Position numbers and translations under genes: made by a program. From contig CAZVTE010000001.1 in assembly GCA_964629705.1 (NCBI GenBank), forward strand, positions 1-34,903: a stretch of DNA of 34,903 bases, given 5' to 3'. Shown here one piece after another: positions 2,921-34,903 of the stretch. Each line of letters starts with the position of its first letter. The first letter of the stretch is position 1. The stretch comes from an uncultured Candidatus Saccharibacteria bacterium. GTDB lineage: Bacteria; Patescibacteriota; Saccharimonadia; Saccharimonadales; Saccharimonadaceae. The notes under the pieces were generated by a model that made no database searches, was not told where the DNA came from, and saw nothing but the letters and a program-made list of their open reading frames with translations.

Positions 2921-3238
2921 TCAAGTATCACGCAAAAAAGAAGAACTAACCGTAGGCCTAAGGTTTAACCTTTTTGTAGCCAAGGGATAGTCCTTCAGTC
3001 TTTATTTTAATACGCAATATTAAAAAGTCAAGACAATTTTGACATTCCTCTAGCACTCTTCAGTCTCATGCTATTTGGAGGGGTATGATTGGATTTGGTG
3101 GCGCTAATACGGGGATCTGTTGCCCTTCCCAAAGTATTAGCCGTTTAGACCGTGCCACCATTCTAGCATTGCTGGGGGGGTAGTCGTCAATTGGAAAAAC
3201 TCTGCTACTCCCCAACACCCCAAAACCGAAACATAGAT

Positions 3239-3328
3239 GCTGGTTTAATTCGTTAAAGTAGACGAACAAGTTTGTAAAACTTGTATCCTTTGAGATTCGA
3301 GTGGGTGCGATTCCCTCAACCAGCACCA
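3239..3328 (+). tRNA. tRNA-Tyr(GTA), atypical D and T loops
   Basis: Acceptor GCTGGTT/AACCAGC, A73, CCA; anticodon stem CAAGT/ACTTG with loop TTGTAAA; long variable arm. Confidence 0.75.
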
Positions 3329-3333
3329 ATATG

Positions 3334-3408
3334 GGGCGTCTAGTTTAGCTGGAAAGAACAGCTGTTAGCGCGACAGCAGATGCCGGTTCAAAGCCGGCGG
3401 CGCCCCCC
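3334..3408 (+). tRNA. tRNA-like gene, anticodon GCG (nominally Arg), non-canonical
   Basis: Acceptor GGGCGTC/GGCGCCC; stem GCTGT/ACAGC with loop TAGCGCG; T arm GCCGG-TTCAAAG-CCGGC. Confidence 0.7.
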
Positions 3409-3480
3409 TAAAAAAGTCCTCATACCGAGGTCGCGATAAGTATGAGTCCATATCTAGTCCTAGGCTAGACATGTCCATGT

Positions 3481-3557
3481 GGTGGGTATAGTCCAATGGT
3501 TAAGACACTAGTTTGTGGCACTAGAGATGCCAGTTCAATTCTGGCTACCCTACCCCA
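3481..3557 (+). tRNA. tRNA-His(GTG)
   Basis: G-1/C73, anticodon stem CTAGT/ACTAG with loop TTGTGGC, T arm, CCA; one bulged T in the acceptor stem. Confidence 0.85.
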
Positions 3558-3560
3558 TGA

Positions 3561-3637
3561 TCAAGAGTAGGCAAATTGGTAAAGCCACTAACCTTTGAAG
3601 TTAGAGTTTGTTGGCTCGAATCCAACTCCCGAAGCCA
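3561..3637 (+). tRNA. tRNA-Gln(TTG) with poorly paired acceptor stem (possible pseudo-tRNA)
   Basis: D arm, stem CTAAC/GTTAG with loop CTTTGAA, T arm and G-CCA intact; TCAAGAG/TCCCGAA mismatched. Confidence 0.7.
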
Positions 3638-6903: not shown

Positions 6904-6933
6904 TTGACTGCTGTCCTTAACAATAGTTAAGGT
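6904..6933 (+). promoter_or_regulatory. Late-type promoter copy 1: TTGACT-GCTGTCCTTA(N8)-TAAGGT
   Basis: Shared motif, 18-bp spacer. Confidence 0.7.
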
Positions 6934-16182: not shown

Positions 16183-16206
16183 ATTAACCCCCTTCCGGGG
16201 GTTAAT
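16183..16206. terminator. Probable bidirectional terminator
   Basis: ATTAACCCCC-TTCC-GGGGGTTAAT between convergent genes. Confidence 0.75.
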
Positions 16207-16537
16207 TATTCTTATTATCTTTGTAATAATAACCTATAACAAAGCTGAGGGGCGAGCTAATGAGAGTGCCTACGGTGGTCAGCAAATCTTTAGCATTTGT
16301 TTTCGCACCCCATAGTTGATCCGACAGTACAATAAAGCCCACAATGAGTAGAAAACCGACAAGAAGAATAAAGGCAAAAATTGAACGCCACTCATTTTTA
16401 GTACGTTTAGTCTTAGCTAATTTCTTAGTTTGGTTTTTCTCGGCACTAAGTTCTTTATAAGTTGTATTGTCTAAGATTCTAATCAACGGTTCATTGGATT
16501 GTTTATTTTGCCCACCACTATCATGGTCATCAGGCAT
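16202..16537 (-). CDS. Two-TM membrane protein (lysogenic cargo)
   Basis: Two hydrophobic helices ending FVIGYYY. Confidence 0.8.
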   Translation of the reverse strand: MPDDHDSGGQNKQSNEPLIRILDNTTYKELSAEKNQTKKLAKTKRTKNEWRSIFAFILLVGFLLIVGFIVLSDQLWGAKTNAKDLLTTVGTLISSPLSFVIGYYYKDNKNN

Positions 16538-16779
16538 TATTCCTCCATAACATCGTTAAGCAAATCAAATAAGCGCTTGGTAGTAGATAACAACCCATTT
16601 ATGGAATCGACAACATCATTAAAATTTTGAATCATCATCGTTTTAACGGATTCGTCTTGTAACTCTATGATAGAATTTTGCATCTTTTGAGCACTTTCCA
16701 TAAGATGTGAAATGTTGTCTATATTATTATTGATAGCCTGTCGGATCTCTTCGGCATTGTTATATTCCACCTTTTCCAT
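16537..16779 (-). CDS. Coiled-coil hypothetical protein
   Basis: AAGG RBS; TAATG-coupled to the membrane gene. Confidence 0.75.
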   Translation of the reverse strand: MEKVEYNNAEEIRQAINNNIDNISHLMESAQKMQNSIIELQDESVKTMMIQNFNDVVDSINGLLSTTKRLFDLLNDVMEE

Positions 16780-16893
16780 CCTTTCGCTTATTTTGTATTC
16801 TGTATAAATTGTACCAAACTTGACCTCAAAACAAAACCTTCATTTTATCACAGTCTACTTTTGGGGTCAATACATTTTTGGATTTATGCAATT

Positions 16894-17445
16894 TTACCTC
16901 TTCGGCGCTCGAAATCCTGTAGCAACAGCTTCTTCCACGGAGCAGAACCACTGATCGCCCTTAGATGGGTCAACAATTGTACTGTCATAATATCTGCTAC
17001 CGGGTACGTGGTAGATTTTTGTGTGGTTCTTTGAGTTTACGTTACCCTTGATATTGCAATCAGCGACTGATTCTTGATAAGTAGTGGCGGTTGGTTGCGG
17101 CTCTGGCGCAGTATAGGTTTGAGCTGGCGCAACGTAGGCTGGTTCTGGCTGGATTTGAGTCTCAGCTTGTGGTTCGGAAGGGGCGGCTTCGTAAGATTCC
17201 GTTGAATCTGTAGCAGCGCCAGTAGATGCATCTTCTGAAGGCTCTGTATCCGGGACAGTATCCTCTGCGTCTAGAGAGGTGCTACCAGCATTGCTAGATT
17301 CTATGTTCTCCACTTGCTGAGGTCTGGTAATTGCTTTGGTATCAGAGCTATCGTCTCCCGTATGCGAAAGCAGTCCAATTCCTCCTAATATTGTAATGCA
17401 TCCCGCAATTCCTGCTAAGATTGTTTTAGATATTAATTTACTCAT
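16894..17445 (-). CDS. Membrane-anchored protein with low-complexity stalk and C-terminal Ada/ExoI-like small domain
   Basis: N-terminal TM; CNIKGN...KIYHVPG..YY...WFCS.EEA...GFRA. Confidence 0.85.
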
Positions 17446-17475
17446 ATTGCTGCTCCTATTTTCATTTAATATTTA

Positions 17476-18264
17476 TTATTCTGCGCTGATGTCCAATATT
17501 TTATATTGTACTCCTTCTGGCCATGATAAGCATACGACATCATAAGGAACTATACTTGCACGTTCAGTTTCACCCGTTATTGTACCAGAGCAATTATCGA
17601 CTTTTTCACCGTTAATATATAAACCGAACTGCAATTTTATATTGCGGAGCACAGTGCCATGGTTATTAGCTAACACGCCCTTAATATGATAGACACCCTC
17701 CGCCGCTTGATCCGGTTCCCCTACTTGATCCTCTAATACAGCAATATATGTTTCTGCATCTGGTAACTCCGTAAGATCCTCCATATTCCACTTAATCCAT
17801 TTACGTCTCCCAGTATTGGCTAATACGTCTGCTTTGGTCGATGATAAAGACGTGTTGGTATCATTTAGTCCTCCGGATACTATAACTCCAAGCAGAAGTC
17901 CGAGCACTATAAAAGCCGTGATGATTATGCGCTCATTCCATTTTTTCTTCGAAGCATCAGTATCAGACATTTTATTTCCACCAGTTTCACACCCAGAGAT
18001 AAAGAAATTAGCATAATGGCTATTTATAACAACGATTGATTTTTCACCATCTTCCCAAACAATAGAATAAGTCTTATCATCCTTTTTGTTTTGGCCGTTC
18101 AACAGTTTATAACTTTTCACATTATCGTCATCTATCAGTATTTTATTTCTATCATCCTTAATAAAAAGAACCATCCTCTGAGAATCAAGACTAATCTTCT
18201 TGCCTTTGTACTTGCCACTCAAAACAAAATCGTACACCTTATTTTCTACCTCTCCTGCCCACAA
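17476..18264 (-). CDS. Single-pass membrane protein with FxLYD-like C-terminal domain (start may be GTG 18237)
   Basis: Central TM; IKGVLAN...NIKLQFGLY..GEKVD. Confidence 0.75.
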   Translation of the reverse strand: MWAGEVENKVYDFVLSGKYKGKKISLDSQRMVLFIKDDRNKILIDDDNVKSYKLLNGQNKKDDKTYSIVWEDGEKSIVVINSHYANFFISGCETGGNKMSDTDASKKKWNERIIITAFIVLGLLLGVIVSGGLNDTNTSLSSTKADVLANTGRRKWIKWNMEDLTELPDAETYIAVLEDQVGEPDQAAEGVYHIKGVLANNHGTVLRNIKLQFGLYINGEKVDNCSGTITGETERASIVPYDVVCLSWPEGVQYKILDISAE

Positions 18265-25184: not shown

Positions 25185-25403
25185 CTAAACTCGAGAGAAG
25201 AGATAATCTTCACGCCAGCACTCCTTCCTCTCTTCATTCGCTTTCTTTTCCGTATCTTCTTCGTAGCGCTCAAAAATATTAGCAACTTCTTTCGCTAGTT
25301 TGCGGCGCTCTTCCAGCGAAAGTTGTTTTTGTTTCTTTTGATTCTCCTTAAGCCTAGCTCTTGCTTCGGATAAATCGTTGATAAAATAATCTTGCCTGCA
25401 CAT
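25185..25403 (-). CDS. Charged helical hypothetical protein with its own promoter
   Basis: AAAGGA RBS; TGCTATAAT at 25428-25420 on the minus strand. Confidence 0.65.
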   Translation of the reverse strand: MCRQDYFINDLSEARARLKENQKKQKQLSLEERRKLAKEVANIFERYEEDTEKKANEERKECWREDYLFSRV

Positions 25404-25478
25404 AGTTTTCCTTTTTACTATTATAGCACAGTTATCCGACCACGTCCGAAGATTAAGAATATATAATAGCTTAGAAGC

Positions 25479-25871
25479 TTAGCCGATGGCAATCCAGTTG
25501 ATAGGCAAATCTTGTGTTGTACCTTGGTTGTGACGTGCCACAAGAGTGAAACCAGTCTTAGTAACATTAGTGGTCATGACACTTGGAAGTCCAATCCAAT
25601 TATTAACCGTGGCAGTAATGACTGGAACGCTAGTGAAAGAGGATGGAAAATTAACTGTAGCAGTTACGTCTGTACCAGAGGCTGCATTACGAATCGTGGT
25701 TGAGCCCCACATTATCTTTCTAGTGCCAAAGTTAATAATATTAGGAGTTGTTGTATCTGGCGTGTTTGAAGCAACCGTGCTAACATTAGATACGATTTGA
25801 TTCAATTGCTCCGCCGTCAAAACATCGAGCGGCACAAAAACTAGTGATGGGTATGGTAAGTTAATTGCCAT
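25479..25871 (-). CDS. Short tail fibre/receptor-binding protein (gp53-like / H-type lectin C-terminus)
   Basis: FVPLDVLTAEQLNQ anchor; WG...VNFPSSFTSVP...TKTGFT...NWIAIG. Confidence 0.8.
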   Translation of the reverse strand: MAINLPYPSLVFVPLDVLTAEQLNQIVSNVSTVASNTPDTTTPNIINFGTRKIMWGSTTIRNAASGTDVTATVNFPSSFTSVPVITATVNNWIGLPSVMTTNVTKTGFTLVARHNQGTTQDLPINWIAIG

Positions 25872-26209
25872 TATTTAATCTCCAAGCTAAAAGGTGTATA
25901 TTCAAAGTTGAGAACATCGGCGCTAACAGTAGCTTTGAGTGCGTATTCTTCAGTAATCTTCTTCGCCACTGCGTCCAGTTGTGTTTCGACAAAGTCTGAT
26001 TCAAGTTCCGGTAAAGTGCGTACAAAGAGCGAAAACTTAACTTCACCCATATTATAATCTTTAGCGTAGCGTTTTAGGCCATTTTCTGCCGTAAGATAAA
26101 CTGGCGAACCATTCTCTAGGTAGCGTTGCCCTTTTGGTGAAGGCAATATGCTGATACCATTGATTCCAAGAGCCCTCCAAATTGCAATTTTGTTCAATAT
26201 AATATCCAT
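25871..26209 (-). CDS. Hypothetical protein (true start probably ATG 26209)
   Basis: TAATG-coupled to the fibre gene; the upstream TTG in the ORF track is the promoter -35. Confidence 0.7.
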   Translation of the reverse strand: MDIILNKIAIWRALGINGISILPSPKGQRYLENGSPVYLTAENGLKRYAKDYNMGEVKFSLFVRTLPELESDFVETQLDAVAKKITEEYALKATVSADVLNFEYTPFSLEIK

Positions 26210-26215
26210 ATCCCT

Positions 26216-26245
26216 ACAATAATCGTCTATAAGGACAGCACGCAA
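26216..26245 (-). promoter_or_regulatory. Late-type promoter copy 5: TTGCGT-GCTGTCCTTA(N8)-TATTGT
   Basis: Shared motif on the minus strand, 18-bp spacer. Confidence 0.75.
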
Positions 26246-26292: not shown

Positions 26293-28509
26293 ATGTTCAA
26301 CAAATTTGCTAGCAAAATTAAGAGTTGGCTGAATGCTGACGACCTCAAAACGCATGACAACAGCATCATGCAATCTTATGGGTATAATCCAATCAACACA
26401 CTATTTCCGGGTTGCTGTGAAGAAAATGGTAGCTATGATAATAATTATGCCAATATCTCCCGAATCGCTGAAGCTTTCGCCGAAGTATTACCCTACGCAA
26501 TTGACGAAAAGGGTAAGCGCTTAAAGCATGACCCAAACGTGATTAATGTACTGTACAACCCGAATGAAGAGATGTCGGTTACGGATTTCTTAGAGACACT
26601 CATGACGATGCTACTGGTGCATCCGATTGTCTACATTTTGTGCTGGCATTACGAAGGAAATGACGTTGTTCCTGGTGGTCCGATCACGGAGGGTAATCTA
26701 GCTGGGCTCACTTTCATGGAAGGAGTGTCGCAAGCTGTTACTGGAAACGAAACCACTTATTATTGCGGCAGCAATGTCTGGACGAAACGAGATGTGATTG
26801 CACTGAGCCTTAGCGTTAATCCATACAATCTGTTTGCTGGCTATTCTCCAAGCATTGCCGCCAAGAAATGGGCGAACGTTGACGATTATGTGGCAGATTA
26901 CCAAGCGGGCTTCTTCAAGAACGGCGCTATTCCAGCTGGAGAATTCATTGTTACCGCACCGAGCGAAAAGGAGTTTAATGATATTGTCGATGGCCTAGAA
27001 AAACATCACAAGGGCGCAGGCAAAAATAACAACGTTATTTACGCTCATCGCCCAGTAAATACGGTCAATGGTATGCCGCTTGTATCACAAATTGAATGGG
27101 TGCCGTTCGCACAAACCACTGACAAGGGTACACTACAATCAATTTTTGACCAAGCGAATAAGAAAATTGATATGACTTTTGGCGTACCAGAAGAAGTGAA
27201 GGGGCACGTGCAAAACTCCACTTATGCGAGCGCAGAAGTGGCAGACTACATCTTTTCCCGGCGCGTACTCTACCCGAAATTGAAGAAGATCTACAGCAAA
27301 CTCACGCACGAGTTCAATCGCATCACCGGCGGAATGGGATATGCTTTAGACTTTGATTACGAGCCGCCAGTTTTGACCGATACGCGCCAAATCCAAACCG
27401 ATACGCTAACTACCCTGCTGAATGCCGGCTACACCGTAGAGAGTGCCGTTGAGGCCTTGCAGCTTCCTAAATCTTTCTTGGCACTAAAAGAAAAACCTAA
27501 AGAAGAGCCAGTAGTACCAGAAACGGCAGAAATTACAGAAAACGATAAGCAAGACGTTTCCCAAAATGAGGACAAGGAAAAGTCACTTAGCCAGTGCGGT
27601 TGCGGACATAGCCACAACCGCAAGGACGTGATTGACGAATTGACCGCTAGAGAACCAGATGAAGAGGTTAATCCAGAAGTTCTGAAGGTACTGATGGGGT
27701 TAATCACAAGTATTCTTGCCCACGCCACCACCGAAATTGAGACCAACAATGGAATATTAGATATTGACAGCTTAGAAAAATGGGTCAAAACCTCCGGTCT
27801 GGAATCACGCACTGCTAAGATGTTTAGCGCCGCTCTGCTTTTCCTTATGATGGCGAAGGGCGAAGATGCGGCAGTTGATTTTGCCGACAGATTAGGGATT
27901 GACACTTTTAGTCCGGAAATTACTGAGGGTGATATGGAAGCGATAGAGCAAAGATCCAGAGAGCTTACGGTTAGCTTAGCCGACCAAATCATCGAAAGCG
28001 TTAAGAAAGTGATGACAGACGCCAAAACCAACGGGCTCACAACTACGGAAACCATTATCCTAATCCAGAATTTAAGTAATTCTGAGGCGTGGCGCGCCAA
28101 ACGAACCGCAGTGACCGAGCAGCACCATGCCGAAGAAAATGCAGTCATGTATGCTGCAATTACTGGCGCGAAATTAGCAAATAAGGTTCTTTACAAAACT
28201 TGGAATATCCACGCTGGGGCTTGCGCTGAGTGCATCCCGCTCAGCGGTGAACGCAGACTAATCACAGAACCATTTTCCAACGGAGAATTAGTGCCACAAG
28301 TTCACCCAAATTGTCGGTGTTATTTAACTTATGATTTCGCAGAGCCTGCTAAATCAATCAAGCTGACCTGTCCAGAGTGCGGTCGCTACTTGCTCGAAAG
28401 CGCCGACGCCAAACTGAAAAATGTGATTTGCGCCAATAGCAAATGCAAACATCGCTATGATATTGAAGTTGCAAATGGTAAAGCTAAGTTTATAGAAAGG
28501 AGGAGGTAA
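26293..28509 (+). CDS. Portal protein fused to Mu gpF-like head-morphogenesis domain and Zn ribbon
   Basis: LYNPNEEMS..DF, GYSP, FFKNGAIPAG, FGVP; then KTW...CAEC..L.G...HPNCRC; then CPEC...CANSKC. Confidence 0.9.
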   Translation: MFNKFASKIKSWLNADDLKTHDNSIMQSYGYNPINTLFPGCCEENGSYDNNYANISRIAEAFAEVLPYAIDEKGKRLKHDPNVINVLYNPNEEMSVTDFLETLMTMLLVHPIVYILCWHYEGNDVVPGGPITEGNLAGLTFMEGVSQAVTGNETTYYCGSNVWTKRDVIALSLSVNPYNLFAGYSPSIAAKKWANVDDYVADYQAGFFKNGAIPAGEFIVTAPSEKEFNDIVDGLEKHHKGAGKNNNVIYAHRPVNTVNGMPLVSQIEWVPFAQTTDKGTLQSIFDQANKKIDMTFGVPEEVKGHVQNSTYASAEVADYIFSRRVLYPKLKKIYSKLTHEFNRITGGMGYALDFDYEPPVLTDTRQIQTDTLTTLLNAGYTVESAVEALQLPKSFLALKEKPKEEPVVPETAEITENDKQDVSQNEDKEKSLSQCGCGHSHNRKDVIDELTAREPDEEVNPEVLKVLMGLITSILAHATTEIETNNGILDIDSLEKWVKTSGLESRTAKMFSAALLFLMMAKGEDAAVDFADRLGIDTFSPEITEGDMEAIEQRSRELTVSLADQIIESVKKVMTDAKTNGLTTTETIILIQNLSNSEAWRAKRTAVTEQHHAEENAVMYAAITGAKLANKVLYKTWNIHAGACAECIPLSGERRLITEPFSNGELVPQVHPNCRCYLTYDFAEPAKSIKLTCPECGRYLLESADAKLKNVICANSKCKHRYDIEVANGKAKFIERRR

Positions 28510-28847
28510 TGGATTGGAGCGCAATACTAGTCGCAATAATATCGGCAATTAGCGTTATTATCGTAGCGGTCGTAAATCGTAATGCTAATAACGAAAATAG
28601 AGAAAAGACAGATTCTCAATACAAAATAATAGTAAATAAGCTAGACGATCTTACCCTAAGAATTGTGCGCCTCGATTTGCTAAATGCAATCCAACATGAT
28701 CCGGAGAACGTCGCGGTAATTATGAGCATGGCGAAATTATATTTTGTAGAACTACACGGTAATTGTTATATGGGTAAAGTATTTCAAGAGTGGGCTAATA
28801 AGCACGATATAAATGTTGGTAATTTACTTGGAAAGGAGGAAAAATGA
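28509..28847 (+). CDS. Holin-like membrane protein
   Basis: N-terminal TM, coiled coil, YFVELHGNCY. Confidence 0.55.
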   Translation: MDWSAILVAIISAISVIIVAVVNRNANNENREKTDSQYKIIVNKLDDLTLRIVRLDLLNAIQHDPENVAVIMSMAKLYFVELHGNCYMGKVFQEWANKHDINVGNLLGKEEK

Positions 28848-28975
28848 GTAAAGTTCTAACCGAAGATATTATCCCCTCCCTCAAGGCTCAGGTTGTAACC
28901 AAAGCTGAGTTTGAGGCGGAGATTGGCAATATCAATAGCAGTCTAACCGAACTCGATACAGGAGCAGGAGTGTAA
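28844..28975 (+). CDS. 43-aa adaptor-like peptide (MSKVLTEDIIPSLKAQV...)
   Basis: AAAGGAGG RBS, ATGA/TAATG coupling; N-terminus similar to the fibre genes. Confidence 0.75.
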   Translation: MSKVLTEDIIPSLKAQVVTKAEFEAEIGNINSSLTELDTGAGV

Positions 28976-29118
28976 TGAGTGTTACAGAAACAATTACCTC
29001 AATGCAGAAACACACCGCTGATGTCTGGGCGAAGATTGAGAAAAAAGGCGGAACTATTCCGGCGCAAAAGAACATTGATAATCTAGCAGAAGCGATTCGG
29101 TCAATTGGAGGAAACTAA
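28975..29118 (+). CDS. 47-aa protein homologous to the N-terminus of the next gene
   Basis: GGTIPAQKNIDNLAEAIRSI vs GGEIPAQKNLANLALAVEGI; coupled at both ends. Confidence 0.8.
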   Translation: MSVTETITSMQKHTADVWAKIEKKGGTIPAQKNIDNLAEAIRSIGGN

Positions 29119-29939
29119 TGAGTGTTGCAGACAAAATCATAAGCATTAAATCCCATATCCAAGCCGCTTATGATGCGGTAGAAGAGATGGGTGGAGAAAT
29201 TCCGGCACAGAAAAATCTAGCGAATTTGGCATTGGCAGTAGAGGGTATTGTCACTGGTCCAGACCCAGACAACCCAACTCTAGAGAATCTCAAAATCGCT
29301 CTTAAGACTGGACACCCCGAGAAATATTATCCTGTAGGCACAAAAATTTTGGATAAACAATCCGCTTGGACTATTGCAAGTTTTGAGACTGCGATCGCCG
29401 AGGATGACCGCAGCGTATTCGGAGCATATCTAATGCAAAGCGTGACTAGCGCGCTAGTCATGAACTATTCTGGGCTGTACAATCCCTACTCAGACTCCAA
29501 ACTTCAGACCTATTTAGAAGGCAGTGATTTTCTGGATACTCTCTCAGATACGCTTAAATCCTTAGCCACGACAATCAAAATTGCTTCCTATCAGATGCGC
29601 ACGCAGGAACTCCTCTCTATCCCAGCTAAGTTTTTCGCACCTTCAAGAGCGGAGCTTAACATGACTGAGCTTGCCATCTATGCCCCGCCAGTTGAAGAGG
29701 GTTCAGCATGGCAATTCTTTAGCAATGCTAACTATTCCGATGCGGAAATTAGGGAAAATCGCATCGTTAGAAATACTTCTAACGCGCCAATCATTTACTG
29801 GACTAGAACTGGTTCTAGTCGCAACAGAGGCAATACCTATTCATTTTTTGTCAACAGAGACGGGAGTCCTGGAGATACAACATGCGCAAATTCAACACAA
29901 ATCACTCCAGTTGCTGCCTGCTTCATTGCCAAAGATTAA
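29118..29939 (+). CDS. Virion-associated protein with DUF6273/C-type-lectin-like C-terminal domain
   Basis: YPVGTKI, YSDSKL..YL, KFFAPSRAEL, YWTRT, FVNRDG, PVAACFI. Confidence 0.7.
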   Translation: MSVADKIISIKSHIQAAYDAVEEMGGEIPAQKNLANLALAVEGIVTGPDPDNPTLENLKIALKTGHPEKYYPVGTKILDKQSAWTIASFETAIAEDDRSVFGAYLMQSVTSALVMNYSGLYNPYSDSKLQTYLEGSDFLDTLSDTLKSLATTIKIASYQMRTQELLSIPAKFFAPSRAELNMTELAIYAPPVEEGSAWQFFSNANYSDAEIRENRIVRNTSNAPIIYWTRTGSSRNRGNTYSFFVNRDGSPGDTTCANSTQITPVAACFIAKD

Positions 29940-31445: not shown

Positions 31446-31880
31446 CTAGCTACTTTTGTGTCTAGCGCTAGATGATCTAATTTTTTCTATAATAGGTGCG
31501 TTCAATATGTCTTTTTCGCTCCATAAAGCTTTAGATATACTATGTACTACTGCAATGATTTCTACAAACATAGCTGTGCCAATTATATCTAAAGTACCAT
31601 CACTGAGAACATCTATATTCATAGTAACCTTAAATGCTATTTTAAAAAACACCAAAACGATAAATAAAACCACTACATCTTCAGTTAATCTCAGCACAAA
31701 CTTAAGAACTTTATCTCTTTGGCTACTCCTTTGTTTCAATATCTTCATCACCTCGTCGCTTACGGACGGATCAGGCGCTTGAATCTCTGCCTGCGGTGAT
31801 TCTTCAGTATTATATTCTGATTCAGTAAAAAGAGTACGGTAAAATGCGCTCAAATCCTCTTCTAGTTCTGTTTCATCCAT
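31446..31880 (-). CDS. Two-TM membrane protein
   Basis: Acidic N-terminus, two hydrophobic helices; overlaps the ImmA-like gene. Confidence 0.8.
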   Translation of the reverse strand: MDETELEEDLSAFYRTLFTESEYNTEESPQAEIQAPDPSVSDEVMKILKQRSSQRDKVLKFVLRLTEDVVVLFIVLVFFKIAFKVTMNIDVLSDGTLDIIGTAMFVEIIAVVHSISKALWSEKDILNAPIIEKIRSSSARHKSS

Positions 31881-32368
31881 CTTACTCTATTCCTGACCGC
31901 TATAGTTGACACACCAAAGTACTTGGCTACTAAAGATTCATTATCTAAGAGTCTATATATCCTCCTAAATAATTCTTTGGGCATTAAAAGAGATGCAGCA
32001 AAATAGTTAGCTTCAGTTTCTTCTATCGACCCCTTGGAGTCATTATATGTAAAAAAGTCCAACCTAAACTTATCCTGGTTTGGGTGTAAAACAAAATGTC
32101 CGAATTCATGAGCTAGCGTAAAAGTTTTTCTCGCTGGAGATAAATCTTCGTTAATGAATATTCTTGCCTGGCCATCTTCATAAGAAATAGCTCCATTGAT
32201 TTTATGACGATTTTCCTGGAAGTCGAAATCATACAGCCCAATATTATCATAAGCAGTAATAATATCTTTGAGTCCATTTTCCGGATAAGTCATATCAACG
32301 TAATCTAAGATGTTACTAATTGTATCATCTATCTCATGCTGCCTATCAATAGTAAGCTTTCCTCTCAT
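31862..32368 (-). CDS. ImmA/IrrE-family metallopeptidase (DUF955)
   Basis: RKTFTLAHEFGHFVLH, EETEANYFAASLLMP, AKYFGVS..AVRNR. Confidence 0.93.
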   Translation of the reverse strand: MRGKLTIDRQHEIDDTISNILDYVDMTYPENGLKDIITAYDNIGLYDFDFQENRHKINGAISYEDGQARIFINEDLSPARKTFTLAHEFGHFVLHPNQDKFRLDFFTYNDSKGSIEETEANYFAASLLMPKELFRRIYRLLDNESLVAKYFGVSTIAVRNRVRWMKQN

Positions 32369-32795: not shown

Positions 32796-33188
32796 ATGTT
32801 AAGTGATGAACAAATTAGAATTATCGTCAATCAATTCGTGAAAATGGGTATGAAATTAGATTTCACCGGTCAAGGTCTGGAAATTGCCCTGTTCAGAAAT
32901 GACGACAGTTGGGACTTGCAAACGATTGAGCCGAGGTCTCCGAAACTCAAAGATGCGGAGTTACATTTTAGATTTCCGGATGATTTGCCAGAAGATAACC
33001 TAGATGCCGCGATTGAATTGGCTGGAATCTTGTCAATCAGACTGCACAAATACGCAAACAATAAGAAAGCCAATGCCGGAAAGACGCCAGAACAGCGTAA
33101 AGCTGCCGCCAAGAAAGCCATTGAAGCACGTTGGACAAAATACCGTGCAGAAAAAGCAAAAGCGGCGGAAAATGGTCTTGACAAATAG
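32796..33188 (+). CDS. Hypothetical protein with basic C-terminal TPEQRKAAAKKAIEARW motif (possible nucleic-acid binding)
   Basis: GAGGAG RBS; 130 aa. Confidence 0.8.
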   Translation: MLSDEQIRIIVNQFVKMGMKLDFTGQGLEIALFRNDDSWDLQTIEPRSPKLKDAELHFRFPDDLPEDNLDAAIELAGILSIRLHKYANNKKANAGKTPEQRKAAAKKAIEARWTKYRAEKAKAAENGLDK

Positions 33189-33206
33189 CTTCTGGTTTGA
33201 TACAAT
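33178..33206 (+). promoter_or_regulatory. Strong sigma70-type promoter TTGACA-17-(TG)TACAAT
   Basis: Near-consensus; predicted +1 about 33213. Confidence 0.85.
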
Positions 33207-33212
33207 AAAAAT

Positions 33213-33263
33213 AATCAAGCGAATATTGAAGCCCCGTCCCCTCTTTGAGGGTTGGGGCTTTTT
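33213..33263 (+). ncRNA. Putative ~50-nt terminated small RNA / attenuator leader
   Basis: Promoter, single-stranded 5' end, terminator AAGCCCC...GGGGCTT-TTT; 24-nt complement to 64-87. Confidence 0.65.
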
Positions 33264-33401
33264 CATAGTCTCAAAACAGGTACAAATACTCATAGGTTAG
33301 CAAAACGCTCGTTTGCTAGCTTATGAGTCACAAAATATTAACCGCTAGATTCTGCAACGAGCGGGCAGGATTTTGGTGCTAAAATTTACAACGGAGGTAA
33401 T

Positions 33402-33740
33402 ATGGGAAAAGTACAGGGATTCAATGAACTCATTGACAATGAAAGATTCCTTAAGGAATCTCCTTCAATGACAATGTCAATGAAGAGGGTTTACGGAGCG
33501 CGAGAAATTCCACTGGCGGAAGACGAAGTGGATGAACAGGCTGATTTACTCGTTGAGATGTTCGGAGCTAGAGACAGCAAAGGATTGTACTGTGACGCAG
33601 TGCGCTATTTAACTAAGGCGTTTCTTAACGAAAAGGCTAATTACGCCCTACAAAAGGGGCGCAATCCCGCTGCTTGTTTCGGTGCTATCGTTTACCGTCA
33701 ACTCCGCAAAGCTGGAGTGTACCCGAAACACGCCGTCTAG
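33402..33740 (+). CDS. Putative replication initiation/helicase-loader-like protein
   Basis: GGAGG RBS; ANYALQKGRNPAACFGAIV resembles DnaD/DnaB_C-type helices; internal iteron-like repeats. Confidence 0.45.
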   Translation: MGKVQGFNELIDNERFLKESPSMTMSMKRVYGAREIPLAEDEVDEQADLLVEMFGARDSKGLYCDAVRYLTKAFLNEKANYALQKGRNPAACFGAIVYRQLRKAGVYPKHAV

Positions 33741-33817: not shown

Positions 33818-34723
33818 ATGCCATACAGAATTGAAAAATATATCAAAAACAACGATTTGCCAATCTGCTCACAGCTAATTAGATACTTTGATTATTGTCA
33901 ATTTGATTGCAACTTCACGAAAGACACAATGCGAGGAAAAACCTTATCTATTAACCATTTCGTTAAATGGTCAGAAATCGAAGATATTAACAATTTAACG
34001 ACTCGAATGGTACTGGACTATATAACCAATCAAGTTAAAGATGGTTTGATGCCTAGAACCATTAATAACCGCACTAAGCATCTTAAGGCGATGGTTAACT
34101 ATTTCAGAGATTATGAAGATATGGATATTCCTAACTTTCAAGAACGAAAGATTAAAAGACAGCATGAAGAAACGCCTTACAAGCGTGCGTTTTCAAGGGA
34201 AGCGGTATGCAAGGCGCTGCATTTTGCCGACCGTGAACCTTGGCTAATGATTAAGCTTTGCTTTGATTGTGGGCTAAGAATTCAAGAGCTTCAAAAGCTG
34301 AGATTAAGAGATATTCATGGGGACAAAGTCTCAATCCTCGGAAAGGGCAGAAAAAGGCGTCAAATCAATTTGTCCCACGAAGTCATTGTGAGATTAAATG
34401 ATTTCATTAAAAGGGAAAATGTAACCGATTACGTCTGGAAAAGCAAAACTAAACCAAACGTTCCAAAAACCACCGAGACAATCAGAAACATGATGCGCGC
34501 CCCATTCCAGTCCGCGGGCGTAGCAAATTTCTGTCCACATGAATTAAGATACTCATTCGCAACGGATTTGAAAAGACTCGGCGCATCAACTAGAAGTATT
34601 CAGCAAGGCTTAGGGCATTCATCAGAAAAGATCACAGAACACTACCTAAAAGACCTCGATGACGAAACCCTCAACGAATTGTACAAGCTCAAATATTCTG
34701 CTGACGAGCCAGAACTGTACTAA
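33818..34723 (+). CDS. int: Tyrosine recombinase/integrase
   Basis: CGLRIQE, GKGRKRR, HELRYSF, LGHSS, TEHY catalytic set; GGAGGAG RBS before ATG 33818. Confidence 0.95.
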   Translation: MPYRIEKYIKNNDLPICSQLIRYFDYCQFDCNFTKDTMRGKTLSINHFVKWSEIEDINNLTTRMVLDYITNQVKDGLMPRTINNRTKHLKAMVNYFRDYEDMDIPNFQERKIKRQHEETPYKRAFSREAVCKALHFADREPWLMIKLCFDCGLRIQELQKLRLRDIHGDKVSILGKGRKRRQINLSHEVIVRLNDFIKRENVTDYVWKSKTKPNVPKTTETIRNMMRAPFQSAGVANFCPHELRYSFATDLKRLGASTRSIQQGLGHSSEKITEHYLKDLDDETLNELYKLKYSADEPELY

Positions 34724-34728
34724 AAAGC

Positions 34729-34758
34729 TTGCCCCAGATTTAGCTCTGGGGCAAAAAA
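34729..34758. terminator. Terminator-like hairpin after the integrase
   Basis: TTGCCCCAGA...TCTGGGGCAA followed by an A tract. Confidence 0.7.
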
Positions 34759-34773
34759 TAAACAAAAATGTTA

Positions 34774-34802
34774 TTGACAGCGGGAAGAAAATTTGCTAAA
34801 AT
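34774..34802 (+). promoter_or_regulatory. Strong promoter TTGACA-17-(TG)TAAAAT firing across the terminal repeat
   Basis: Near-consensus with an A-rich UP region. Confidence 0.85.
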
Positions 34803-34884
34803 AGAAATATCAGCGAAACCACGGTTTGCAGAGATGGTTATTTAAGATAGTTGCATTATATGGTGCGCATCTGATTCTTACAGA

Positions 34885-34903
34885 CACCACACGGGTGTCT
34901 TAA
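34885..34903. repeat. Right terminal direct repeat (putative att core)
   Basis: Identical to 1-19; lies in the dyad AGACAC-CACACGG-GTGTCT. Confidence 0.9.

Follow-up and report, generated by a model that had tools for sequence, protein, structure and literature searches.

Temperate phages usually decide between lysis and lysogeny with a repressor protein, and the phages of Saccharibacteria have barely been described. The locus studied here raises the question of how such a decision might otherwise be made; its parts point to DNA geometry and RNA alone. The window (the whole 34,903-nt stretch that was analysed) is the entire contig C1 of a 1.11-Mb, 166-contig genome. These 34.9 kb encode a terminase, a portal protein, a head protease, a lysin, an exonuclease, an annealing protein, four tRNAs, and a tyrosine integrase. 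The gene content is that of a complete temperate phage of the tailed kind. Its host is taken to be a member of the Saccharibacteria: the only two named homologues among the 118 of a conserved phage ORF bear that name, a named Saccharibacteria locus matches the genome, and kin genomes measure 0.3-1.2 Mb. Three genes matter most for what follows:

540 to 710, + strand: first gene of the early operon, followed by the exonuclease, the single-strand annealing protein, and others
33402 to 33740, + strand: conserved 112-amino-acid ORF between an antisense RNA gene (described below) and the integrase, with a predicted four-helix domain
33818 to 34723, + strand: tyrosine integrase of about 300 amino acids with a SAM-like N-terminus (PHROG 1, Pfam PF00589)

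A search of C1 for HTH_3 proteins gave no match, and none of the 34 ORFs scored over the cut-off for the repressor families, although a divergent repressor could escape such a search. The ORF at 32796-33188 has a basic stretch near its C-terminus and received no assignment in the family scans. For ORF 33402 we found 118 homologues, without Pfam domains. When its structural model was used in a fold search, the best matches were helical bundles (Z of 6.1 at best), and DnaD-domain chains were weak matches (Z of about 4).

Some features of the genome's organization are less directly tied to the switch. The four tRNA genes (Tyr, Arg, His, and Gln) lie at 3239-3637 in the early region, with a promoter scoring 10/12 at 3031 on the opposite strand. 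Blocks of minus-strand genes (16202-18264, 25185-26245, and 31446-32368) are inserted among the structural genes, some of them with their own consensus promoters; these blocks include an IrrE/ImmA-type metallopeptidase without an adjoining HTH repressor. The portal gene (26293-28509) follows the tail genes and carries a head-morphogenesis domain as a fusion. The order of the gene blocks is shuffled among relatives.

The window begins and ends with the same 19 nucleotides, a terminal direct repeat:

1 to 19, + strand: left copy of the att core, which would be attL in the lysogen
34885 to 34903, + strand: right copy of the att core (attR in the lysogen), within a dyad with a 7-bp spacer

A preliminary description of this DNA had taken the repeat for a possible att core set in such a dyad. 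The dyad is present by direct reading of the sequence, and the assemblies bear out the rest. The commonest overlap between contigs in this assembly is 55 nt (14 of the 38 end overlaps listed), so the 19-mer is not a k-mer overlap. The right end of C1 overlaps a host contig, C123 (whose genes, read by eye, include gap, rpiB, and rpe), by 55 nt, which gives attR. Contigs with this host-phage right junction are also found in sequencing runs X1 and X2, and the junction contigs break exactly at the 19-mer. In run X3, a contig of 34,881 nt puts positions 1 and 34885 of the window at one letter, so the circle has a single core. One contig of run X4 crosses the join as well, and run X2 has a 41-nt edge that consists of 11 + 19 + 11 nt. 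In X2 and X4, two different contigs converge on position 1, from which we infer the host side of attL. Runs X1 to X4 come from one study, possibly the source of this DNA, and they confirm the structure but not independently. Integrated and circular forms both exist. A tyrosine integrase adjoins a short repeat that bounds the element, the break falls exactly at the repeat, and the circle has one copy. The 19-mer is almost certainly the true att core of a temperate phage. That it might be an assembly artefact, with integration occurring elsewhere, is a reading that can appeal to the window being an assembled contig and to the inferred host side of attL, yet it is largely refuted by the 55-nt k-mer overlaps, by the assembly of both attR and attP junctions, and by the att repeats at the same place in relatives, and we give it next to no chance.

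An empty attB, which the preliminary description had suggested looking for in hosts, was not found among 300 genomes of the genus; the matches were an unrelated short repeat. Exact searches for the core and for the RNA target described below, together with integrase searches, gave no matches in viral contigs, and a metagenome scan for the integrase returned five distant integrases and nothing else. A 22- to 25-base repeat near the host att site (L004:1285-1310) is common to 64 of the 300 genus genomes. A dif-like reading of 34839-34866 was considered and dropped, as it is one base short.

The strongest part of the locus is one that the preliminary description missed, namely a predicted antisense RNA at 33213-33266 and its target in the early leader. 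The longest perfect inverted repeat of the window joins 64-87 with 33213-33236, and both halves fall within predicted elements:

33178 to 33206, + strand: promoter from which both the antisense RNA and the ORF-integrase operon would be transcribed (11/12, extended -10; conserved)
33213 to 33266, + strand: predicted trans-acting antisense RNA of about 54 nt with its own terminator, its 5' 16 nt predicted to be mostly unpaired
51 to 107, + strand: conserved leader hairpin A, 7 of whose 20 pairs have changed on both sides (RNAalifold, four sequences)
64 to 87, + strand: antisense RNA target, made up of the 5' strand of hairpin A and its loop, complementary to 33213-33236 at 24 of 24 positions
94 to 116, + strand: alternative hairpin B, drawn by eye from the alignment, which overlaps the 3' strand of hairpin A and could form upon RNA binding

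The predicted duplex between the RNA and its target in the window has an energy of -43.8 kcal/mol. To ask how specific the pairing is, we compared relatives, which had been gathered within the genus by terminase, integrase, and ORF searches (they are named here by genome and, where needed, contig). In a matrix of 11 RNAs by 12 leaders, all eight RNAs whose own leader is known had, among the phage leaders, their best partner in the leader of their own phage. The cognate duplexes range from -24 to -46 kcal/mol (G068 is the weakest), and the best mismatched pair among those eight reaches -27. The sequences of RNA and target are unrelated between phages. The elements carry a predicted small RNA complementary to the lytic leader, with pairing that is element-specific, and the cognate complementarity is shown as far as sequences can show it. 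In a second set, a target was found for 7 of 23 elements, and most of the misses are elements with one end or a 2- to 3-kb locus only. G105 has two copies of the RNA gene. Searches of Rfam, first with the window and later including two intact junction loci, gave no family match besides tRNAs, and a sequence model of the RNA cassette found nothing in 150 other genomes drawn from the family. The stretch between the RNA's terminator and ORF 33402 (33270-33400) holds a conserved motif and a paired region, which may control read-through into the integrase operon.

The 24-nt match could also act on DNA, either as a guide for a protein such as the product of ORF 33402 or as a duplicated binding site. 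It is perfect in the window, G326, G280, and G118, and the conserved ORF next to it fits no assigned family. On the other hand, deviations from a perfect match are mostly G-U wobbles (six of the eight cognate duplexes contain G-U pairs), the copy at 33213 starts where an 11/12 promoter is predicted to initiate and has a terminator at its end, the target lies within a covarying hairpin, and the ORFs scanned include no member of a nuclease or guide-binding family. We consider action on DNA to be quite improbable. Antisense control of the joined transcript, in place of a repressor protein, is likely on this evidence from sequence.

We scanned the window as a circle for sigma-70 consensus promoters, with a score out of 12 and a threshold of 10/12. 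The elements near the right end are:

34728 to 34755, no strand assigned: hairpin resembling a terminator, located past the integrase and before the outward promoter; it was scored on the - strand and has T or A runs on both sides
34774 to 34802, + strand: outward sigma-70 promoter in the right att arm (11/12, extended -10), the predicted main early or lytic promoter of the circle

The circle has five plus-strand sites of at least 10/12 (23457, 24588, 32461, 33178, and 34774). As the preliminary description held, the promoter at 34774 has no gene before the right end (no ORF of at least 50 amino acids follows it there), and the early operon has no other consensus promoter: the plus strand of 1-23456 contains no site of at least 10/12. 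Its further claim, that integration parts the sole consensus promoter from the early operon, agrees with the sequence, in which the promoter of the integrated form is about 35 kb from the leader and faces host DNA; integrated relatives share this layout.

Five integrated prophages with both att copies (G326, G280, G159, G068, and G373:C2) have an outward promoter of 10-12/12 before attR; a sixth, G032:C22, has none of at least 10/12 there. Between attL and the first gene, no site of at least 10/12 was found in the four prophages with a scanned left end, and G326 has one site of 9/12. The promoter arm spans 46-99 nt in the six phages in which it was measured. Junction contigs that are intact, from G248 (a circular contig), G113:C37, G355, G311, and G348, all have the order outward promoter, tRNA-derived core, terminator, hairpin, boxA-like word, first gene. 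G118 has its integrase operon in the opposite orientation and still an outward promoter at the right end (by eye). The cores of the relatives are 15-67 bp long and lie mostly in tRNA genes, and their integrases range from 52% down to about 25% identity to that of the window. Because most of these integrases are only about 25% identical and the cores are mostly in tRNA genes, the layout has survived exchange of the integration module. Such a promoter has weak specificity, since many integrases are followed by one: of 29 integrase loci, 21 have a promoter just downstream, and in 7 cases a host-like gene comes next. Profile searches found ORF 33402 in 40 of 369 genomes of the genus and in none of 400 genomes drawn from the order. 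It was not found outside the genus with the queries used, and so far the module appears confined to this one genus.

An 11-base motif occurs in six copies upstream of late operons (at 6906, 9709, 15531, 18402, and 26256 on the plus strand and at 26240 on the minus strand). These operons include the interrupted structural blocks, and the copies are candidate activator-dependent late promoters; G326 and G159 carry repeated motifs of their own. The motif hints at activator-dependent promoters, and a non-consensus early promoter could exist.

This bears on another account of the right end, in which the outward promoter serves some other role (antisense to a host locus, or a small RNA that stops at the terminator) and transcription of the early genes starts from an activator-dependent promoter within the leader, so that excision is not the switch. 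Besides the motif, which is unlike sigma-70 promoters and precedes late operons, this account draws on the terminator that directly follows the core in most members, on host promoters that face the core in C123, G280, and G159, and on a 10/12 site that overlaps the boxA-like word in G105. However, the leader of the window lacks the repeated motif, the other leaders, read by eye, show no -10 element after the boxA-like word, and the RNA target lies about 10 nt past the T run, which leaves no space for a promoter between them. We therefore think this account unlikely, if less so than action of the 24-nt match on DNA. The promoter at 34774 probably drives the early operon, and does so only once the ends are joined.

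A transcript from this promoter would cross the att core, and here the evidence is more divided. The elements involved are:

34809 to 34884, + strand: predicted 5' segment of the junction transcript (the P arm), its start placed from the promoter, including the left arm of the junction stem at 34862-34884
20 to 36, + strand: right arm of the junction stem, from folds and arm pairing
36 to 59, + strand: terminator-like hairpin and T run just inside attL, a predicted insulator, weak at -5.4 kcal/mol

The long hairpin across the join that was proposed in the preliminary description is real as a predicted fold. The stem that pairs 34862-34884 with 20-36 around the core dyad is present in both the minimum-energy and the centroid folds, and the 75-nt junction fold has an energy of -25.5 kcal/mol versus a mean of -13.3 for shuffles (z of -4.4). 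Single ends alone give z of -1.0 or -2.0. The outer pair of GATGG at 34833-34837 with CCATC at 60-64, part of the same proposal, forms only when the transcript is cut at nt 70-100 and gives way to the local hairpin at 51-107 in longer folds; we judged it to be unstable.

Pairing across the core exceeded that of shuffled arms in four of six phages. In the window, the true arms beat 147 of 150 shuffles (3 were as high), and none was as high in G326, G280, or G248 (where the arm was tested against the core plus the far arm). Pairing was not above shuffles in G159 or G068, and some mismatched pairs of arms were as strong as true ones (28.7 and 26.1 vs 22.9).

As to regulation, an insulator hairpin with a T run is predicted in most members, though it is weak in the window and not evident in G159, and relatives have stronger hairpins at the position that matches 36-59. 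We compared the predicted terminator with and without the promoter arm at eight junctions; those of G311, G113:C37, G355, G348, G032:C22, G373:C2, and G105 were read by eye. The arm was predicted to disable the terminator in G374, G373:C6, G118, and G248 (values fell from 0.84-0.98 to 0.00-0.05), and only 0-1 of 60 shuffles were as low, although in G118 shuffled arms broke the terminator too (mean 0.17). G374 and G373:C6 are nearly identical and count as one lineage. The starts, the terminators, and three crossovers were picked by eye, and the junctions of G374, G373:C6, and G118 assume a crossover. In the window, the terminator (predicted at 36-51) had a value of 0.71 without the promoter arm vs 0.77 with it. 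No switch was predicted in the window, G326, or G068, and G280 was marginal, which makes four of the eight junctions negative. A general base-paired attenuator in every member was rejected, as the terminator persists in the window, G326, G280, and G068. So the junction hairpin as a regulatory RNA, as first proposed, is not what the window's own terminator indicates and is predicted at half of the junctions tested. A split antiterminator is well predicted by folding in three lineages, and we are inclined to doubt it in this window, where the stem may partly be, or double as, a DNA dyad for the integrase.

A broader form of that idea accepts the split promoter and the antisense pair as real and takes the junction hairpin for DNA symmetry only, the imperfect inverted repeats that the integrase binds to either side of the crossover, with the terminator being read through by leakiness or with the help of a protein. 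The cores of tyrosine recombinases use 7-bp-spaced dyads, and the core of the window lies in one. Furthermore, the inner palindrome of the dyad is also present in C74, at a host site, and in two records named as Saccharibacteria (L009 and L012), the P arm of G326 finds almost as good a partner in the host arm (21.6 vs 25.8), and the window itself has a weak terminator and no predicted switch. What DNA symmetry does not fit is that the paired arms of G280 are outside its 67-bp core, that the arm of G248 reaches over about 150 nt to pair with the 5' strand of the terminator itself, and that the distances in both phages far exceed those of core-type binding sites. We regard DNA symmetry as a serious contender that falls somewhat short of being probable.

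Beyond the terminator, hairpin A is followed by one more element:

138 to 146, + strand: boxA-like word, a putative site for NusB/S10

This nine-base word, which we take to be boxA, is found in its strict form in 9 of 12 leaders versus an expectation of 0.006 per 250 nt, and the leaders are from kin that are not independent of each other. A word equal or close to it is present in the rRNA leader of one genome of the same genus (one of three rRNA leaders compared), and the rRNA leaders of two genomes from other families differ from it. Profile searches of five genomes found NusB and RNase III in all five and Rho over the cut-off in none; in the Rho search, 8 of 14 controls were positive. The rest of the leader (163-520) folds into three long hairpins (at about 199-271, 278-423, and 431-503), and relatives also have long structured leaders of unrelated sequence.

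Putting these parts together, we propose a switch in five steps. Except for the DNA forms of the first step, the model's expression, start sites, termination, and silencing are all predicted from sequence. First, the phage alternates between the two observed DNA forms, and integration leaves the promoter about 35 kb from the leader; the promoter at 34774 would fire the early operon when excision or infection joins the ends. Second, the terminator just inside attL would shield the prophage from host read-through. Third, and in some relatives only, RNA of the promoter arm is predicted to pair across the core with, or next to, the 5' strand of the terminator, so that polymerase passes. Fourth, the transcript would form hairpin A and offer the boxA-like site to Nus factors for read-through of the long operon. 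Fifth, the lysogen would make antisense RNA from the promoter of the integrase operon, and this RNA would pair over 24 nt with hairpin A. The leader would then refold and become a substrate for RNase III, so that a genome with the same target, whether incoming or spontaneously excised, is silenced. Because Rho is missing, leader refolding plus RNase III is the most likely mode of action of the RNA. The lysogen would thus be locked twice, by geometry and by RNA; immunity groups would be set by the variable 24-mer; and induction would begin with excision, once the integrase operon is transcribed past the RNA's terminator. Overall, we judge a model that combines an excision-coupled promoter with phage-specific antisense immunity to be somewhat probable, given the sequences. 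A more ambitious version, which we put forward tentatively and do not hold to be the likelier outcome, is that this phage family may run its entire lysis-lysogeny decision without a repressor protein, by means of a recombination-wired promoter, an antiterminator split across attP, boxA-loaded Nus factors, and a programmable 24-nt antisense RNA, with leader copies and remnant RNA-integrase cassettes in hosts as decoys or kept immunity.

Parts of this model resemble known systems. In IS110- and IS3-type elements and in ICEclc, circularization creates a transcription unit, as it would here; but in those elements the promoter is built at the join or drives the recombinase, whereas the promoter of the window is whole in one arm and precedes a lytic operon. 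The CI RNA of P4 and the C4 antisense RNA of P1/P7 are processed from the regulated region and act via Rho or a small ORF. Like these, the RNA of the window is a small phage RNA that would pair with a leader and limit the lytic transcript, with its specificity set by sequence. Unlike them, it has its own promoter, lies 1.7 kb away on the circle, and pairs in one 24-nt run; its host has no Rho over the cut-off, and there is no Rfam match. The window would work like the RNA-immune phages but is not a member of that group.

The closest parallel for the promoter is Tn916. In the sections of the Tn916 study that we drew on, Porf7 is parted from its operon until excision, the terminator T1 insulates, and canT RNA gives read-through (PMC11658703). 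In the portion of that account used here, the promoter is at one end and the operon at the other until the circle joins them, with an insulator terminator at the far end and read-through due to promoter-side RNA, as proposed for the window (PMC11658703). However, Tn916 is a conjugative element and the window is a tailed phage with terminase, portal, head protease, and lysin, and canT, as those sections present it, is a processive antiterminator of about 340-450 nt that lies entirely on the promoter side (PMC11658703). In contrast, the phage arm is 46-99 nt, its pairing spans the att core, and the phages have a specific antisense RNA and a boxA-like word. The window would work like Tn916 but is not a member of its group.

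The preliminary description had likened the locus to mycobacteriophage BPs, in which, according to the part of the report consulted, attP is within the repressor gene and integration takes off a degradation tag (PMC3694055). The likeness holds insofar as site-specific recombination sets the lysis-lysogeny state through a compact switch near the integrase (PMC3694055, same part). It fails at attP, which in the window lies in a non-coding leader: no repressor gene is there, the core lies within no gene-like ORF, the search for an HTH repressor was negative, and the int-rep-cro cassette of the BPs type has no counterpart. Tn916 is closer.

For the leader, the comparison is with Nus-based antitermination at lambda nut and rrn boxA, as treated in the portion of the source used (PMC12360218). 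As in lambda nut, rrn boxA, and HK022 put, going by the sections consulted, a hairpin and then a boxA-like word stand in the early leader, and the host has NusB (PMC12360218, PMC11658703). The function of the window's word as boxA is putative, given the word itself and NusB in all five genomes. Unlike in nut and rrn, Rho is absent in the host of the window, and control would come from the antisense RNA; among the ORFs scanned, none was identified as an N-like protein. For an H. pylori prophage, protein repressors have been proposed, at least in the part of the report that we used (PMC11321410), and it is not a precedent for the window. In a full-text literature search, mostly without subscription journals, we found no paper that describes this combination in a phage, and none that deals with att sites of Saccharibacteria prophages; a phage of TM7x is the subject of PMC13578794. 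Each part has a precedent: promoter separation and the insulator in Tn916, RNA immunity in P4/P1, and boxA in nut/rrn.

The module is short, and at least 15 cognate RNA-target pairs are available as natural variants. It could be tested with reporters and could yield orthogonal RNA switches. It could also allow the immunity groups of phages to be called from sequence in uncultured hosts.

Several related loci show other arrangements. Downstream of chromosomal integrase homologues at L017-L020 and L023-L025 there is a conserved promoter and then, in each case, the same gene for a secreted-like protein; these loci are possibly domesticated right ends. At L033-L036, L038, and L039, the integrase is followed by two convergent promoters around an inverted repeat, possibly another att arrangement. 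G032:C22 has two tandem elements at a tRNA-Gly (at about 27881-29700); the right end of one is directly before the attL of the next, and its promoter reads towards that attL. The ends of G374:C13, G373:C6, and G118:C2 have a very short core and inverted ends of about 17 bp, and these prophages seem to insert within a multicopy family of host surface-protein genes.

Finally, host contigs of G000 contain copies of the leader hairpin at C113:3135-3252 (95% identity), C151:2074-2161 (85%), and C93:1094-1184 (70%). The copies in C113 and C151 retain the full RNA target, and the copy in C93 follows a tRNA-Gly, like the attL of G105. These copies are probably scars of earlier prophages and possibly decoys.
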